Assembly (NCBI GenBank): GCA_964016885.1
Contig: OZ024740.1
Span: 243,536,001 to 243,600,000, forward strand
Source of the DNA: Eledone cirrhosa
Taxonomy: Eukaryota
Length of the DNA stretch: 64,000 nucleotides
Reading direction: 5' to 3'
Part shown: positions 25,590 to 60,769 of the stretch, piece by piece
Position numbering within the stretch: position 1 is the stretch's first letter
Layout: each line of letters starts with the position of its first letter
Translations under genes and position numbers: made by a program
The notes under the pieces: generated by a model
What the model was told of the DNA's origin: nothing
Databases searched by the model: none
What the model saw: the letters and a program-made list of their open reading frames with translations, nothing else

Positions 25590-26067
25590 AAGCCAGAAGG
25601 TTCATTTGGCCAGTGCTTATCCCTGTTTCATGGTGTGAAGTGACTGAGTGTACAAGACTTCCTCCTGGACAGGATGCCAGTCCATTGCAGGATTAAACCC
25701 CTAGCTGTTGCTGGTACTCATTTTCAGCTGAGTATACTGGAGCAACGTGAAATGAAGTGTTTTGCTCAAGAACACAACATGCAACCTAGGAATCGAATCC
25801 ATGACACTGATCGTAAGTCCAACACCCTTACCACTAGGACACAGGCCTCCACTATATGTATATATATACACACTTTATATACATGCATATATATATAAGT
25901 GTATGTATGTAATTGTGATGTGTATATATATATATATATATATACATATAGTGGAGGTATGTGTCCTAGTGGTAAGAGTGTTGGACTTACGATCAGTGTC
26001 GTGGGTTCGATTCCTAGGTTACATGTTGTGTTCTTGAGCAAAACACTTCATTTCACGTTGCTCCAGT
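25590..26067. mobile_element. Head-to-head pair of tRNA/CORE-type SINEs
   Basis: A box (cctagtggtaag), B box (ggttcgattcc) and ttgagcaaaacactt core in both orientations. Confidence 0.8.
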
Positions 26068-26844: not shown

Positions 26845-27745
26845 TTACCACGATCTGTGGAAACACCTCCTTATCTTTCTATAGTGGGTTAGTGATAGGT
26901 AAAAGCGACAACATTCTTGGGGAAACTCTGGGCATCAACAAAAATCAACTAGCCATTCTTTTCCACAGGATTTTCGGTCCATGGCCTATGGACAACTTCC
27001 AGAAATCCTTGGCCTGGCAGTGCTACGAGGAAGCGTTGCCAGTCTGAGATAAACTGTACAGGCATGGAAGTGCCACCAGCTGGGCATATCCGAGATGCGC
27101 GCAGAGCGATGAAACTGTCATGCAAGCATTCATCAACTGGCTTGTGGGTCTATCTCAAACACCTGCTGTCACAAGTGGAACGTCTCAGACTATCAACTGA
27201 GTCCATTGTTAAAATCACCCCACTGCTCTTCCTTAGCCAAGAAGGGCAGGCTGTCTTTGTCAGTCTGGTGGTCACAATGAAAGAGTTTGTATGGTGAACA
27301 CATCTGAAAGGACTGAAGATGGGCACTTTTCTTTTCGGTGACTCCCTGATTTTGGGTTTCACTTAAAGAGAAAAATCATGGTGGAGAGGGAAGTGCTGCC
27401 TTCAAAGCAATTTTTTGAAAAGTGGGTGAAAGAGGCAAGAATGGCCCGAGTGAATGGGTCTGCTCTGAGACTGTGCCTGTAGATTGAGGGAGGACACCTA
27501 GTAAAGGGCATGTGCCCTGGCAGTCAGGGTGACTGTGGCTTTGTGGGCTTTCTCCATGATGAGTAACCCTCAGCAGCCCCCCCCCCCCCCTATTGGGGAC
27601 ATTTTTTTTTGTTTCTATTTTTTTTTGTTACATCCTTTGTTTTTGTTTTATACTCATTTTTACATGCAGAAACCCACATTGTAGCCCCCCTGTGCTGTCC
27701 TTAATATGTTTTTATATAAACCTTTTGTGGTCAATAAAGAAAACT
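26845..27745 (+). mobile_element. Tx1/L1-clade LINE 3' fragment
   Basis: Homologous to the reverse complement of 14370-15280 (atggacaacttccagaaatccttggcctggcagtgctac, gcaagaatggcccgagtgaatgg). Confidence 0.85.
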
Positions 27746-28041
27746 TTAAAAACAAATAACGAAACGAAATTAAATTTCGTTTCGTTTGTAACTCACTTTT
27801 GTATGACTGACGCTTAAACAATTAAGTTAAAGATGTACATCCATATATGTATACTGAAATACTAGTATGTATATGAATACACACACGTATACATATGTAG
27901 GTGTACCAAGTTTTTTCACTGGTCACTTTACTGTGAGTGGCCAGCTATTCTGTATGTAAACACACAGACAAACCGGTTTTTAGAGTCATACTGGTTTTTG
28001 AGGAAACACCTCTCCTCTATTCTCCAGAAAGCCAGACAAGG

Positions 28042-28086
28042 AATATTGAACTAGTTTCGTTGTTGTTACAACTCATCAGCAATATT
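28042..28086 (-). ncRNA. Minimal type I hammerhead ribozyme
   Basis: aatattg CTGATGA gttg-taacaa-caac GAAA ctag TT caatatt. Confidence 0.85.
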
Positions 28087-28742
28087 TACCTATCTTCCGG
28101 CCTCTCTAGAGAATCGTAAAAGCACATATCGTTATATGCTTTTTCTATGAAAATTAGTAGTGGGCAGACTAATTTGCATAGAGTGTGAGTAAGTACCGGT
28201 TCAACGGAGACGATAAAAACAAATAACGAAACGAAATTAAATTTCGTTTCGTTTGTAACTCACTTTTGTATGACTGACGCTTAAACAATTAAGTTAAAGA
28301 TGTACATCCATATATGTATACTGAAATACTAGTATGTATATGAATACACACACGTATACATATGTAGGTGTACCAAGTTTTTTCACCGGTTTGTCTGTGT
28401 GTTTACATACAGAATAGCTGGCCACTCACAGTAAAGTGACCAGTGAAAAAACTTGGTACACCTACATATGTATACGTGTGTGTATTCATATACATACTAG
28501 TATTTCAGTATACATATATGGATGTACATCTTTAACTTAATTGTTTAAGCGTCAGTCATACAAAAGTGAGTTACAAACGAAACGAAATTTAATTTCGTTT
28601 CGTTATTTGTTTTTATCGTCTCCGTTGAACCGGTACTTACTCACACTCTATGCAAATTAGTCTGCCCACTACTAATTTTCATAGAAAAAGCATATAACGA
28701 TATGTGCTTTTACGATTCTCTAGAGAGGCCGGAAGATAGGTA

Positions 28743-28787
28743 AATATTGCTGATGAGTTGTAACAACAACGAAACTAGTTCAATATT
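28743..28787 (+). ncRNA. Minimal type I hammerhead ribozyme
   Basis: aatattg CTGATGA gttg-taacaa-caac GAAA ctag TT caatatt; perfect 7 bp stem I, palindromic stem III. Confidence 0.85.
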
Positions 28788-29032
28788 CCTTGTCTGGCTT
28801 TCTGGAGAATAGAGGAGAGGTGTTTCCTCAAAAACCAGTATGACTCTAAAAACCGGTTTGTCTGTGTGTTTACATACAGAATAGCTGGCCACTCACAGTA
28901 AAGTGACCAGTGAAAAAACTTGGTACACCTACATATGTATACGTGTGTGTATTCATATACATACTAGTATTTCAGTATACATATATGGATGTACATCTTT
29001 AACTTAATTGTTTAAAGAAAACTTTATTATAT

Positions 29033-43326: not shown

Positions 43327-43875
43327 GAGAGAGAGATTTAAATCATTATTCAACAGGGTACTTAATACTTGGGATAGTAGAGTGTAACTATATTAGAGCC
43401 AGGCCACGACGGCTTAGCTCTTGCTAATTTGACAGTCAGTTCCTGACTAGTCTGGAATTAGCTGTTGAAATGGCATACATAATTTTGTTGGGGTATAAAG
43501 CTCAAAAGAATACATCCTAAGTTTAGTTTTTTTAACACAATTTTATTATTGTTAAATGTTACTTAGTGCATATTTATATGTCTATATATATACATAGTTT
43601 ATTGGTGTGTAACATTTGATACTTTGTTCCAGCTACTTGTTATATGTGTATATATATATGTGTATATAAGTATGTATACGTACATACATATATGTATACA
43701 GACGTACAGTAGTGTGTATATATATATACATACATGTACACATATATATATATGTACGTATGGGTTTACCGAACATTTATTATAATGTTCTGTTTGTTTG
43801 TAAACAAAGAGCCTGAATTAAGCCATACAGTGTTCGGCAACCATCGTTGCCCCTTTGTTCAACACTGACAAAGGA

Positions 43876-43918
43876 ACGATGAACTAGTTTCAAGCTTATT
43901 AGCTATCGTCAGCATCGT
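43876..43918 (-). ncRNA. Minimal type I hammerhead ribozyme (GUU site)
   Basis: acgatg CTGACGA tagct-aata-agctt GAAA ctag TT catcgt. Confidence 0.8.
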
Positions 43919-44314
43919 ATACCTTCCTGTCAGAGGATTGAATGTTTGAAAGTATATACTTTCCTTATGCATATTAATGGCTGAGCAGCCTAATTTGCAT
44001 ATCGAGTGAGTTAGTCGGCCGGGCGCACCGAAAACGATAAATGGAAAAGAATGAAACAAAATTTTATTTCTCACTCTTAGTACGGCTGATACTTAAATAT
44101 AAGTATATAAGTATGTATACGTACATACATATATGTATACAGACGTACAGTAGTATGTATATATATATACATACATGCACACATATATATATGTACGTAT
44201 GGGTTTACTGAACATTTATTATAATGTTCGGTTTGTTTGTAAACAAAGAGCCCAAATTAAGCCATACAGTGTTCGGCAACCATCGTTGCCCTTTTGTACA
44301 ACACTGACACAGGA

Positions 44315-44357
44315 ACGATGTACTAGTTTCAAGCTTATTAGCTATCGTCAGCATCGT
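44315..44357 (-). ncRNA. Minimal type I hammerhead ribozyme (GUA site)
   Basis: acgatg CTGACGA tagct-aata-agctt GAAA ctag TA catcgt. Confidence 0.8.
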
Positions 44358-44815
44358 ATACCTTCCTGTCAGATGATTGAACGTTTGAAAGTATATACTT
44401 TCCTTATGCATATTAATGGCTGAGCAGTTCCTTACTGTGGTTACTCCCAATTTAACCTGGGACTCACACACACATATATATGTATATAAAAAAAATATTC
44501 TTATGAAGAATTCGTCTCCTGATGATAAAACTTCAGTTCTTCCAGCAAGGGAACAGACAAAGGTAATGTTTTTGAATGCACAAAGCTGTGGAGGGGAACT
44601 GAAGCTCACAAGAGAACAGACAAAAGCTTCAAAAACATTATTTTTGGGGTTCCCTCGCTGTTTTAGTTTGGATTGCCTCGAGAGTGTAACCTTATTATAT
44701 AATGAAGCTGTCTGATGAGATCATGATACTGGTTACGTAAAATCACATGGCCACTGTCAACATTGAAAAATATATCACAGACTTTTTAACATCCACAACA
44801 ACTTTGCAGTTTTCT

Positions 44816-53834: not shown

Positions 53835-56427
53835 TTATTCAAAATATTAACAAATGAAAAATATTCTCATAATCAAAATATATAGATCCTACCTGCATTT
53901 GATAGGTACTGTGTTGTTTTTTTCAGTACGTCCTCATCAGACAAAATATATGATTTGATATATGACATACTGCTTGATTATTCAATTCCAGTATTGGCAG
54001 TGATTTATTTCATCAAATCTCAATGTTTATATACCACAAATAATATGATAAACTTAAAGAAGAAAAGGACGTAGAGCAAATTAGAGATATGAGAGAGGGT
54101 GTAGAGAAGAGGAAAGGCAAGAAAAAAAATACACACATAAATAGATAAATGAATAAAAAATAAAAAATAAAAGGATGAATGAGTAAAAGAAATATATAAA
54201 AAAGAAAAGAGGAATAACGACAAAAGAGGGAAGGTGTGGGGAAAGTAAAGAGAACAGAGGGGGGTAAAGAAAACAGAAAAATAAGGGAACATCAAATAGA
54301 TGGGGATAGAGAAAAAAACCGTTGTTTTCAAATGCTAGATCAAATAGGACATCCAATCACTTCACATAATCAATTGGATATCTTTTGTATTTGATTATGC
54401 TTTAGCTAATTATATTTATATATTATATCAAAATTAATCAGTATAGATTACTTTCTATAGCAATCACATATATAGTTTAAATAAAAATTTATATAGTTTA
54501 ATTTAACTCATTATAGATTATTATTTTTAATTTTAAGGTAAGATATTCTATAAATATTTTGTTACAACTTTAAAAGAAATTAATCTTTAAAGCGTATTAA
54601 AATAATTATTAAATATGTATTAAAATCTAATACCATGCATATATCACCATCAATACATATAATATATTTAGATCATTTATTACCCAAATTATTTTATTTA
54701 ATTAGGATATTCTCTTTATAAATTTTTTACTATTCTTTAATTTTCATTTAATTCCTAGGATTAAACTGCAGTTACATTTACTCTCAAAAGTTTTATTTCA
54801 TTAATTTAATGAAAGGTTATATTTACTTCTGTATTTTCTTATTTTTATATATAGTTTCATTTTAATGATAGTCTATATATTATTAATCTACATATTTCAT
54901 ATCTAATATAATTTAGCAAGCTAGTCAAAAAGAAAAGAATTTTTACGGACAATGTAAACAAAAAGAAGATAACTCATTCACCATATACATACATTTATAA
55001 CATTTCTCTACTCCCGCGTTCCGCGATATTTCGAAAACCATAAATCATCTATTGTCTAGTTAAATATTGAACTGTCCTAATCAAAACATAGGATAACGAG
55101 ACTCTTAATGAAATGATTCTAATACATATAAATATCAATAAATTATTACCACAATAAGGCAAAAACTTATATATATATTAAATTATTAATTGTTAATATT
55201 TTTTCGAAACTTGTACATTGCCTGGAAATTTTTACCTATTTTATGGTGACAACTACTAAATAATTCATTTTTTTGTTGTTGTTGATTAAATTGTCATAAT
55301 TTGTAATTATCTGTAGAGTCTCAAGGTTACAAAGATTGCAATTTTGCGAAATAGTTGAGTTCAGATAGGGGGTAGCATTCTTTAATTTTGTCCAACAGAT
55401 GGAATATTTAATATTATTGTCCTTTAAAGACCATATTAATTGTGAAAGTGAAGTTGAAAATTTCTTAGTTGGTTTACTGAAAGAGTGTCTATGATTATAC
55501 CAACGTTCCTTAAATTTAGATGAAGTGGCACCAATGTAGTTATATATATTATTATTTGTCTTAATGGTACATTTATATACTAGATTCTTGTCAAGGCAAT
55601 TATTTTGTAAAGGACATTCGGACTTCTTTCTACAATTACATTTCTTCTCAATGTTATTTACAGACCTTAAACTATTCCCATTATTATTTAAAGGTGTTCC
55701 ACTATTATTCATGTTTAAACTATTATTATTGTTATTCCCATTAACTAATGTATTGTTATTATTATTGATATTATGAGTTCAAATCCCACCGAGGTTGACT
55801 TTGCCTTTCATCCTTACGGGGTCGATAAAATAAAGTACCAGTAATGCACTGGGTAATTTGCTGGCCTTGTGCCTAAAATAGAAACAATTATTATTGATAT
55901 TATTGCTAATTATAGGTTGGTTCAAATTAAGATTTTTACTATTTATTTTTTTATATATTTCTTTTACTCATTCATCCTTTTATTTTTTTATTTTTTATTC
56001 ATTTATCTATTTATGTATGTATTTATTTATGTTTTTCTTGCCTTTCCTCTTCTCTACACCCTCTCTCATATCTCTAATTTGCTCTACGTCCTTTTCTTCT
56101 TTAAGTTTATCATATTATTTGTGGTATATAAACATTGAGATTTGATGAAATAAATCACTGCCAATACTGGAATTGAATAATCAAGATCGTAGCGGTATGT
56201 CATATATCAAATCATATATTTTGTCTGATGAGGACGTACTGAAAAAAACAACACAGTACCTTTGAAATATATAAAATAAAGTATATATTTTGATTATGAG
56301 AATATTTTTCATTTGTTAATATTTTGAATAATATTAAAAATGCCAGGAAAACCTATCAGTTGAGTGCTTCTAATCTATTGTAAAATTGTATTCATTGAGT
56401 AATCAACGAACTATACTAATCTTTGGT

Positions 56428-58772: not shown

Positions 58773-60769
58773 TGTAACGGTTGTCTCCCTTGTTTGGATT
58801 AACATCTAGACGGCAAGTAGAACCCTTTCTGTAACTTCCGGTCAGAACCCTATAAAACTAACAACTTTAAGTTCTCACTCTCTCATTTGGCTCTACCTCT
58901 CATTTGGCCTTCCGGCGCCTGGCTGGCCTTAGCCAGGCGTCCTCTGCCAGCCGCGTTTGCCTGGCAATCAAAACGGTAACGACTAACTTTGTTTCATTCT
59001 ATCATCTATTTCTTTGACATGTCAACTATACTATCTACCATTGTTAATTAAATATTATACACACAAACCATGTCTCATTTTGTTACATTCATGCAACCCA
59101 GTACTCTCGCTATATTGGTAACCCTGATGTGATACGAACACGCAGCCGTTCATCGCTATAAGTGGTCACCCCAAAAAAAGAAAAAAATAGCAGATTCTGG
59201 GGTTGTGTGAGTAACATTACGAATACACAGCAAATTTATCGACAAACTATGAAAATACTCAAACGCACACACGCACATGTGGAATTCGCGTTCAGACAGA
59301 CTTTTTCTCTCACGCATCAACTAACTGTCGCATTTCACGATATATATATATATATATGTTTCTTGTTTCTTACAACGAACTCTTTCAAAACAAAAAAAAA
59401 GAAATTTGATATTTTTTAAAAAACATTTCAACGGGAACATTTATTTTCGATGAACCATTGCCTTTTTTTTTTTTCATCGTTTTCTTCATCGTTCAAGTTT
59501 TTTTTTTCCAAAGTTCACACCAATAATTATGCTGAGTGAAGCATTTCTTTTTCATCATTGTCACTTTCACACTTGCACTATCATTTTCTCGCGCGTTAGA
59601 AATACTATTTTTTCAACCTTCCTTATCCTTGTATTGGCGCGTGTAGGCAGCACAAATTCTCGACTCACGGAGATAGCCGCACGCCAGAGATAACGTTTCT
59701 CGCCAAGGATTCTTCAGCCTTAAGCTATATTCTCCTATTTGCCGGTTTAAAATTTACCACGTAAATTTGCCGTTGAAAACTGCGCATTTATTCAGAATGC
59801 TTATTTCTTTGGTCGCTGCCTCTTGACCCTTCCGGGTCAACGCATTCTCAACATCGACCATCAACTTCGGCTGCTATTTCTAGCACTTTGCGCAACCCAT
59901 TTTTTCTGAAAAAATTTTTTTTTACTGTGAATTTAAACACCGAATACGCTCACTCAGCGAGACAGCAGCAACAGCAACAGCAATACAGCAGCAACAGCAA
60001 CAGCAATACATCAACACAGCTTCACCAACAACCAAAGCCAGAGAATTTATTTTTGCAGCACTCTCCCTGTGAGAAAATCCATTCGGAGGTTGGAAATTTC
60101 ACGATATACCACAGAACAGAAACCACCTGCATTCATTCTCTGGAACACACTTTCTTTCCTGCTGTCATGTGATTGCACACCTGTGAACTATATTTTGTAC
60201 ATTTGAACTTTGAGCCCTTCTCTTACTTTATTACATTGTATCTTTGGGTGATGGATAGATAGATGTCCAGTCGTTCTCTGGCCAAGAGCGGTTGGCTACC
60301 TTGATATCTATCATTGATTTTTGCAAACATTCTTTTGTCGTAATTTTCATGCCTGTTACAACATTCTCGCCAACTTGCTACATATTTTCATTTCGATTTT
60401 TATATCCTAAAATTCTGGCGGGAGGTTATGTAGCGGTTGTCTCCCTTGTTTGGATTAACATCTAGACGGCAAGTAGAACCCTTTCTGTAACTTCCGGTCA
60501 GAACCCTATAAAACTAACAACTTTAAGTTCTCACTCTCTCATTTGGCTCTGCCTCTCATTTGGCCTTCCGGCGCCTGGCTGGCCTTAGCCAGGCGTCCTC
60601 TGCCAGTCGCGTTTGCCTGGCAATCAAAACGGTAACGACTAACTTTGTTTCATTCTATCATCTATTTCTTTGACATGTCAACTATACTATCTACCATTGT
60701 TAATTAAATATTATACACACAAACAATGTATTCCTTGTTACATTCATACAACCCAGTACTTTCGCTACA
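58773..60769 (+). mobile_element. Non-autonomous LTR retrotransposon (Gypsy-like by its 4 bp TSD)
   Basis: LTRs 58773-59114 and 60429-60769 (TG...CA, about 340 bp, highly similar); TSD CAAC; PBS at 59116; purine tract tggcgggaggtta before the 3' LTR; no gag/pol recognised. Confidence 0.92.
59116..59147 (+). other. tRNA-Trp primer-binding site, extended
   Basis: tggtaaccctgatgtgatacgaacacgcagcc resembles the complement of the eukaryotic tRNA-Trp 3' end (TGGTGACCCCGACGTGAT..GAACACGCAACC, recalled). Confidence 0.75.

Follow-up and report, generated by a model that had tools for sequence, protein, structure and literature searches.

The window analysed here, meaning the whole stretch of 64,000 nucleotides of Eledone cirrhosa DNA, lies on contig C1 of the 3.0 Gb genome that was searched and carries two insertions of hammerhead-bearing tandem repeats, near 28 kb and near 44 kb, in a neighbourhood of RTE-type LINE open reading frames (ORFs) and SINE-like repeats, the latter presumably resembling octopus SINEs. 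The 44 kb insertion (family A) consists of a single arm that is 5′-truncated at 44427 and whose 3′ end, at the "short" site, runs into a TA tract, and the 28 kb insertion (family B) consists of two head-to-head arms that overlap by 6 nt at their joint (Table 1). All motifs named in a preliminary description of this DNA are found at the positions and in the order given there. Hammerheads with GAAA-CUAG-UH are indeed present, although the strand on which that description read them was wrong: three cores of the form CUGAnGA...GAAA-CUAG-UH are read on the minus strand, and one inverted copy is read on the plus strand. The motifs gtgagt-ag, acgataaa, ATTTGCAT and the remainder are therefore antisense to the ribozyme RNA. 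The hammerheads are of type I, their helix III being the palindrome ACUAGU, and their core nucleotides are intact in sequence; a mismatch is found at the base of stem II in family A and in a third family, C, located elsewhere. Type I hammerheads with a palindromic helix III are reported, in the available parts of two papers, to work as dimers (PMC4209133; PMC7229834). The Rfam model HH9 matches both family B hammerheads in the window, 28026-28097(-) and 28732-28803(+), with 37.7 bits where its gathering score is 52, and the 44 kb hammerheads have no match in Rfam. Matches to Rfam microRNAs in the window were rejected as TA/CA artefacts, and the top spurious ones originate from a long inverted repeat around a TA tract at 25769-26034, a MITE-like or fold-back insertion. 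Furthermore, a lone minimal hammerhead core, unlike those of A or B, is observed at 59695-59717 (-) and is probably the end of another Penelope-like element (PLE).

Table 1. Positions in the window of the two insertions and of their structural features.
Feature	Coordinates	Strand	Details
Family A insertion (44 kb unit)	43653..44427	-	single arm, 1.76 units of ~440 nt
Family A helix P5 with type I hammerhead	43858..43942	-	core C 43912; palindromic ACUAGU stem III; U-U at stem II base; predicted cut after 43882, triplet GUU
Second family A hammerhead	44297..44381 (outer coordinates approximate)	-	core C 44351; predicted cut after 44321, triplet GUA
Family A multibranch domain	43821..44087	-	closed by P1 (44080-44087 with 43821-43828); contains P2, P3, P4, P5 with hammerhead, P6
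Family A helix P2 (GUGAG with CUCAC)	44006..44074	-	loop contains the "long" 3′-end site at ~44037 (acgataaa of the preliminary description)
Family A helix P3	43966..44001	-	5′ strand UAUGCAAAUUAG
Family A "tail"	44037..44093	-	57 nt; short site (44094/44093, cttaaa of the preliminary description) to long site
Family B insertion, left arm	27747..28390	-	1.38 units of 467 nt; 3′ end at long (tail) site
Family B insertion, right arm	28385..29015	+	1.35 units; 3′ end at short site
Family B type I hammerhead	28026..28097	-	core C 28079; G-C at stem II base; predicted cut after 28049, GUU
Inverted family B hammerhead	28732..28803	+	core C 28750; predicted cut after 28780
Family B multibranch domain	27984..28275	-	closed by P1 (28268-28275 with 27984-27991)
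Family B helix P3	28145-28181	-	
Family B "tail"	28214..28281	-	68 nt; 73 nt to alternative short end
Left target-site duplication, family B insertion	27735..27748	+	14 nt including bases common to element ends
Right target-site duplication, family B insertion	29013..29026	+	

The hammerhead strand folds alike in both units (z -5.1 and -8.2). The closing helix P1 is followed by P2 (GUGAG/CUCAC with two inner hairpins), P3, P4, P5 and P6, of which P5 is long and ends in the hammerhead, and two or three further hairpins follow P6. The fold closes over the whole unit, and circular MFE structures of the hammerhead strand yield z values from -6.6 to -12.1; in folding, family A shows no preference between the strands (z -6.6 and -6.7), and B prefers the hammerhead strand. 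Most MFE structures contain stems I and II, L251 being an exception, and helices P1, P2, P3, P4, I and II are kept in all eight representatives of the subfamilies A1, A2, C, B1, B2 and B3. The proposal that structure is kept while sequence drifts is supported at 42 named pairs: in the two window units 26 pairs are identical, 10 are changed in compensation on both sides, 3 are changed on one side and 3 are broken, and the third family covaries again. P2 and P3 are invariant rather than covarying, and stem I, earlier regarded as entirely different between the units, has an AGGUA / UUCCU part common to both. Across 14 sequences, 94.5% of cells at these 42 pairs can pair, compared with 32-45% when the partners are slid by 1-3 columns; measures counting pairs or pair types do not beat shuffles (191/500 and 480/500), because few independent lineages contribute, and on these few lineages the apparent covariation rests. 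The suggestion that a weak stem II gives short arrays was rejected, because family C, with U-U, forms arrays of 3.9 and 6.7 units. A covariance model, proposed in the preliminary description as a check, was built with 143 positions and run on 24 sequence sources. In the window, the model matched only the four known hammerhead units; elsewhere, it matched a weak, decayed relative (L091:5000-5207, 37 bits), in which P3-like hairpins recur beside a P4-like one and the hammerhead core is altered; it is possibly a fourth, older family.

The splice-site-like and octamer motifs both fall within this fold. GTGAG and CTCAC, previously considered possible intron relics, are found on both strands because they pair as the two strands of helix P2, and a plus-strand acceptor is present in A only. 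The hammerhead strand offers a GUGAG...CUCAC...UAG donor-branch-AG string without a pyrimidine tract, and a search for the spliced-junction pattern gave 0 genomic matches; as PLEs retain introns, this null result carries little weight. An intron relic is not supported, given P2 pairing, an acceptor that is not conserved in B and the null junction search. The 5′ strand of P3 is common to families A, B and C and includes the octamer-like ATGCAAAT. This motif is retained throughout the families, including those with a different partner strand, so that a role at the DNA level is possible.

Genome-wide, the shared P2/P3 motif has 24,449 exact matches (control 0). The units are 430-485 nt in length with one hammerhead each, occur as dimers to 31-mers, and are circularly permutable and not LTR-flanked; no meaningful ORF was found in units or between them. 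Family A, with subfamilies A1 and A2, yielded 4228 first-look candidates, the best of the 40 scored showing 94-96% identity. In family B, subfamily B1 is represented by 70 candidates (37 scored, 99-100% identity) with arrays of up to 13.6 units per arm; being ~100% identical genome-wide, this subfamily therefore moved very recently. The 4191 further hammerhead matches (control 0) are mostly B2 and B3, which are respectively 96-97% and 87-88% identical to B1 and whose longest array has 31 units. Family C shows 81-83% identity to A and 60% to B; it keeps the fold, with P1 changed again on both sides and the 3′ side of P3 B-like. Both A and B are present in contigs of four organisms, three at low depth. 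Among pattern searches for additional families, one returned almost only A, another only A and B variants, and a third 15 matches, comprising 9 B variants and 6 unrelated single hammerheads. Single hammerheads with CUAG stem III in unrelated contexts are observed at L286, L289, L290, L291, L293 and L294, those at L290 and L291 forming one small family.

Nearly all insertion sites are (TA)n, and 5′ ends vary. The 3′ ends lie at two homologous places, just before P1 (cttaaa, the short site) and inside the P2 loop (acgataaa, the long site), which are 57 nt apart in A and 68-73 nt apart in B. Two arms are present at 16 of the 21 B1 loci, and all 16 combine one long with one short end, three of the long ends stopping 2-15 nt early. 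The same combination is found in 16/16 two-armed insertions of B2/B3, drawn from 23 stretches (two from one array), the remainder being single-armed or incomplete within the stretch; the rule thus holds in 32/32 two-armed B insertions, with scattered joint positions. An automatic tally of 58 family A loci left 36 unclassified and 9 one-ended, and 12 of the 13 clean two-armed loci have a long and a short end. Family C uses the same two sites, and contigs of an independent run have loose ends into (TA)n at them as well. Target-site duplications are of 14 nt at the window insertion and of 9 nt at L127, and at (TA)n sites they are unreadable. A 31-unit B2 array (G000:C1:5738093-5752750; L201-L230) has a long arm ending at the short site and a 0.74-unit inverted arm at the long site. 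A family B insertion elsewhere (L326; G000:C1:52500-60000) contains a 1040-aa RTE LINE ORF between its arms, suggesting recent RTE activity; the 5 kb gap was considered as a PLE partner, which was ruled out, as it is this RTE LINE. An inverted 5′-truncated arm and a tail on one end are described as a PLE signature (in the available parts of PMC8557442 and PMC3846280), and in vitro the tail corresponds to the stretch between two internal start sites of reverse transcriptase (RT), both target strands being nicked and extended (PMC11167929, as far as its text was available). The earlier notion of a non-coding retroelement is supported by this PLE insertion anatomy. The scars, through tail, inverted arm and TA target, tie retrozyme arrays to Penelope-type integration and place two likely reverse-transcription start sites to the base.

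Linkage to PLE ORFs, which the preliminary description proposed to check, is not seen, as no RT plus GIY-YIG ORF lies inside the examined insertions. The anatomy favours the Hydra clade as candidate helper, and anatomy is the sole basis for naming a helper, since the PLE families sampled yielded no autonomous element with an end homologous to A or B: the chances that it belongs to this clade seem about even, Neptune is a less probable source, and any other clade is less probable still. An old PLE fragment at 55.2-55.8 kb of the window has a CxCX5C linker, a mark of the Hydra clade according to the available part of PMC8557442. In this old Hydra-clade insertion (~53835-56425), the minus arm ends at the short site; it contains a GIY-YIG fragment (55236-55778), 1.3 kb of 3′ region and, at 53940, a hammerhead. 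The inverted plus arm, which has its hammerhead at ~56225, ends at the long site, and a SINE piece lies near the joint. Its relatives (57,806 candidates) have (TA)n targets, two 3′ ends and inverted arms. Moreover, a very young Hydra family (951 candidates; 40 scored, 99-100%) has a 4.2 kb unit with an RT ORF, and at L322 (G000:C6:43508600-43514300) and L302-L321 its 85-nt tail lies directly before the ORF start; a protein search with the Hydra ORF gave relatives of ≤45% identity. The Neptune-type family, assigned to its clade from a CxxxxCxxC linker, has 22,768 candidates with 0.6% mean difference among the 30 best matches, (TA)n targets and one 3′ end in 10/10 copies. Its copies at L161-L200 are C-rich, with a ~4.7 kb unit, ORFs over 820 aa and a minimal hammerhead, and some Neptune-type copies have, ~45 nt before their own 3′ end, a 10-nt motif also present at the family A long end. 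The termini of the sampled Hydra and Neptune families show no homology to A or B, the best Hydra match being 11 nt (E 0.12), and the covariance model has no match at either set of termini; the window Hydra-type, young Hydra and young Neptune families were therefore each rejected as homologous helpers. Young candidate helper PLEs thus exist in the genome beside the recently moved subfamily.

The units of A and B are ~60% identical, with a core identity of 58-63% depending on the aligner, and BLAST of unit against unit gives 68% over 257 columns, part of the TA tract included. So low a core identity would fit a convergence of the two families on a common hammerhead and low-complexity DNA, as would the TA/CA tract, which can form a long hairpin in B and C and whose A-B score of 61 is indistinguishable from that of other TA tracts (up to 60 for 9 unrelated ones in the window); as proof of homology this tract was rejected. 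Convergence is nevertheless scarcely credible, since the segment upstream of the hammerhead, which contains neither hammerhead nor TA tract, has a local alignment score of 52, whereas none of 1000 dinucleotide shuffles exceeded 27, since the helix order and both 3′-end positions are identical in A and B, and since family C joins an A-like 5′ side to a B-like 3′ side of P3. The segment downstream of the hammerhead is weak, with 58/1000 shuffles scoring as high in local and 3/1000 in global alignment. Because the upstream segment exceeds 1000 shuffles, the likeness extends beyond the hammerhead core and low-complexity tracts, to which the preliminary description had allowed that it might be limited. 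Together with the fold and 3′-end sites of family C, the upstream score largely refutes convergence. Common descent of A and B with conserved structure is supported by the pair changes between the two units and by the renewed covariation in C. The units might also be 5′-truncated terminal repeats (pLTRs) of an unsampled autonomous PLE rather than independent elements, given that the tail and inverted-arm anatomy is as in autonomous PLEs and that the inspected sites are a few hundred of >24,000. This is improbable when set against up to 31 units in direct succession with no ORF between them, a fold that closes over the whole unit, the unrelated RTE LINE in the one wide gap checked (L326) and the lack of covariance-model matches at Hydra or Neptune termini.

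The form of the RNA template is a separate matter. A private variant is present in every covering unit at 6/21 B1 loci and 12/17 B2/B3 loci, mostly on both arms, which suggests repeated copying of a single monomer, as expected of a circle, and a circle is the template that we somewhat favour. Such locus-wide variants would equally be expected if a uniform donor array had served as source of a linear transcript. The same elements could have been copied from linear multimeric transcripts while arrays grew locally by unequal crossover, circles being absent or by-products, a view discussed in the available text of bioRxiv 10.64898/2026.07.22.740005. In the 31-unit and 15-unit arrays, the two longest, variants common to scattered units and an adjacent duplicated 5-nt deletion indicate later unequal exchange; the pattern in the 31-unit array, with a similar one in L261, agrees with linear transcripts, as do mixed units in L115 and L116. 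Mixed units (also in L125 and L126) and scattered variants need local recombination or multimer templates. Moreover, hammerhead cleavage was dispensable for insertion in the one PLE tested in vitro, a Poseidon element whose hammerhead mutants still insert (PMC11167929, in its available part). A new mutation in a multimer donor would, however, give mixed daughters, yet the 6/21 and 12/17 loci are uniform, and local crossover leaves it unexplained that both arms are multimers and that each has a fixed 3′ end of its own; linear transcripts as the principal template are accordingly considered unlikely.

The units are very probably related PLE-mobilised retrozymes, to judge from their sequences. 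More fully, A and B are two kindred families of tandem repeats that code for no protein, carry hammerheads and keep a common branched fold; with the PLE marks of their insertions, they are probably non-autonomous retrozymes copied by a borrowed Penelope-type enzyme. In the life cycle envisaged, an array would be transcribed on the hammerhead strand, and neighbouring hammerheads, pairing through their palindromic ACUAGU, would release monomers for closure into circles, presumably by a host ligase. The PLE protein would bind the P1/P2 region, and its GIY-YIG domain would nick both strands of a TA-rich site. Each nick would prime a cDNA that begins at one of the two internal start sites, so that only one arm would carry the tail; copying would proceed round the monomer over varying lengths, and joining of the cDNAs at short homologies would give head-to-head multimer arms. 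Unequal exchange would then likely extend or mix long arrays further. We tentatively propose that a dimer of the PLE-type enzyme nicks both strands of the TA site, primes each at a different start site on one circular RNA, rolls round it and writes two multimer arms per event, and that P1-P2-P3 serves as a cis-acting handle, lasting through drift to 60% identity, for an enzyme without sequence kinship. If this is true, these elements preserve a trace of that half of the retrozyme life cycle which has been missing. They also provide a concrete substrate for in vitro work on circle-templated retrotransposition and show which RNA helices such a parasite must keep.

On its sequence features, the lineage belongs to the animal non-LTR retrozymes, a known class, and appears to be a new family within it. 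The preliminary description had called it possibly undescribed: no description of the lineage, or of such arm anatomy in retrozymes, was found in the openly accessible literature, whereas the class itself was already known (PMC7229834; bioRxiv 10.64898/2026.07.22.740005); the family may already figure in repeat databases as an unnamed repeat. The bioRxiv study argues that the retrozyme class derives from PLE termini and sampled 35 species, no mollusc being named in the available portion of its text (bioRxiv 10.64898/2026.07.22.740005). In Xenopus, 24/57 families match known repeats, and 21/22 matched repeats are PLEs (bioRxiv 10.64898/2026.07.22.740005, available part). Mobilisation by PLEs via circular RNA is a hypothesis in both sources as far as they were available, the latter discussing local array growth instead (PMC7229834; bioRxiv 10.64898/2026.07.22.740005). 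Cephalopod Penelope elements are mentioned in PMC8967140, with no ribozyme in the part available.

Compared with animal non-LTR retrozymes, A, B and C agree in having no coding capacity, a stable self-paired fold in which the hammerhead can form and, where it can be read (the window B insertion and L127), a target-site duplication of >4 bp, and their units of 430-485 nt stand at the upper end of the size range in the available accounts. Head-to-head multimer arms, two fixed 3′ ends, (TA)n targeting and a cross-family fold at 60% identity are not described for these retrozymes in the accessible parts of PMC7229834 and bioRxiv 10.64898/2026.07.22.740005. Dimeric type I hammerheads and circles are reported in PMC7229834 and PMC4209133; circles and cleavage have been demonstrated for animal retrozymes, whereas A, B and C are known from sequence. 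Xenopus retrozymes partly match PLE repeats, whereas no parent was found for A, B or C. With the pLTRs of endonuclease-bearing PLEs they share partial tandems, an inverted 5′-truncated arm, a one-end tail, AT-rich or (TA)n targets and short target duplications, as far as described in the available parts of PMC8557442, PMC3846280 and PMC11167929. They differ from these PLEs in that they are without an ORF, that their tail measures 57-73 nt rather than the 30-40 nt usually quoted in the parts available, that the hammerhead is located ~240 nt upstream of the first 3′-end site and that the arms are multimers. The Hydra-clade PLEs of this genome (window 55.2-55.8 kb; L322, L324) resemble A and B in (TA)n target, head-to-head arms and hammerhead, and have two 3′ ends, 85 nt apart, with one family as young as B1 (99-100%), but show no significant match of terminus sequence or structure to A or B and have another stem III sequence. 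Finally, the dimeric type I hammerheads of newt and axolotl (Rfam clan CL00010) differ from those described here in that B scores 37.7 with HH9, below 52, A has no Rfam match, and activity is predicted. In the available parts of PMC7229834 and PMC4209133, these hammerheads, like those of A and B, have a minimal helix III with a palindromic loop needing a second copy, and the U-U at the helix II base of axolotl HHR_Amex2 is also present in A1 and C.
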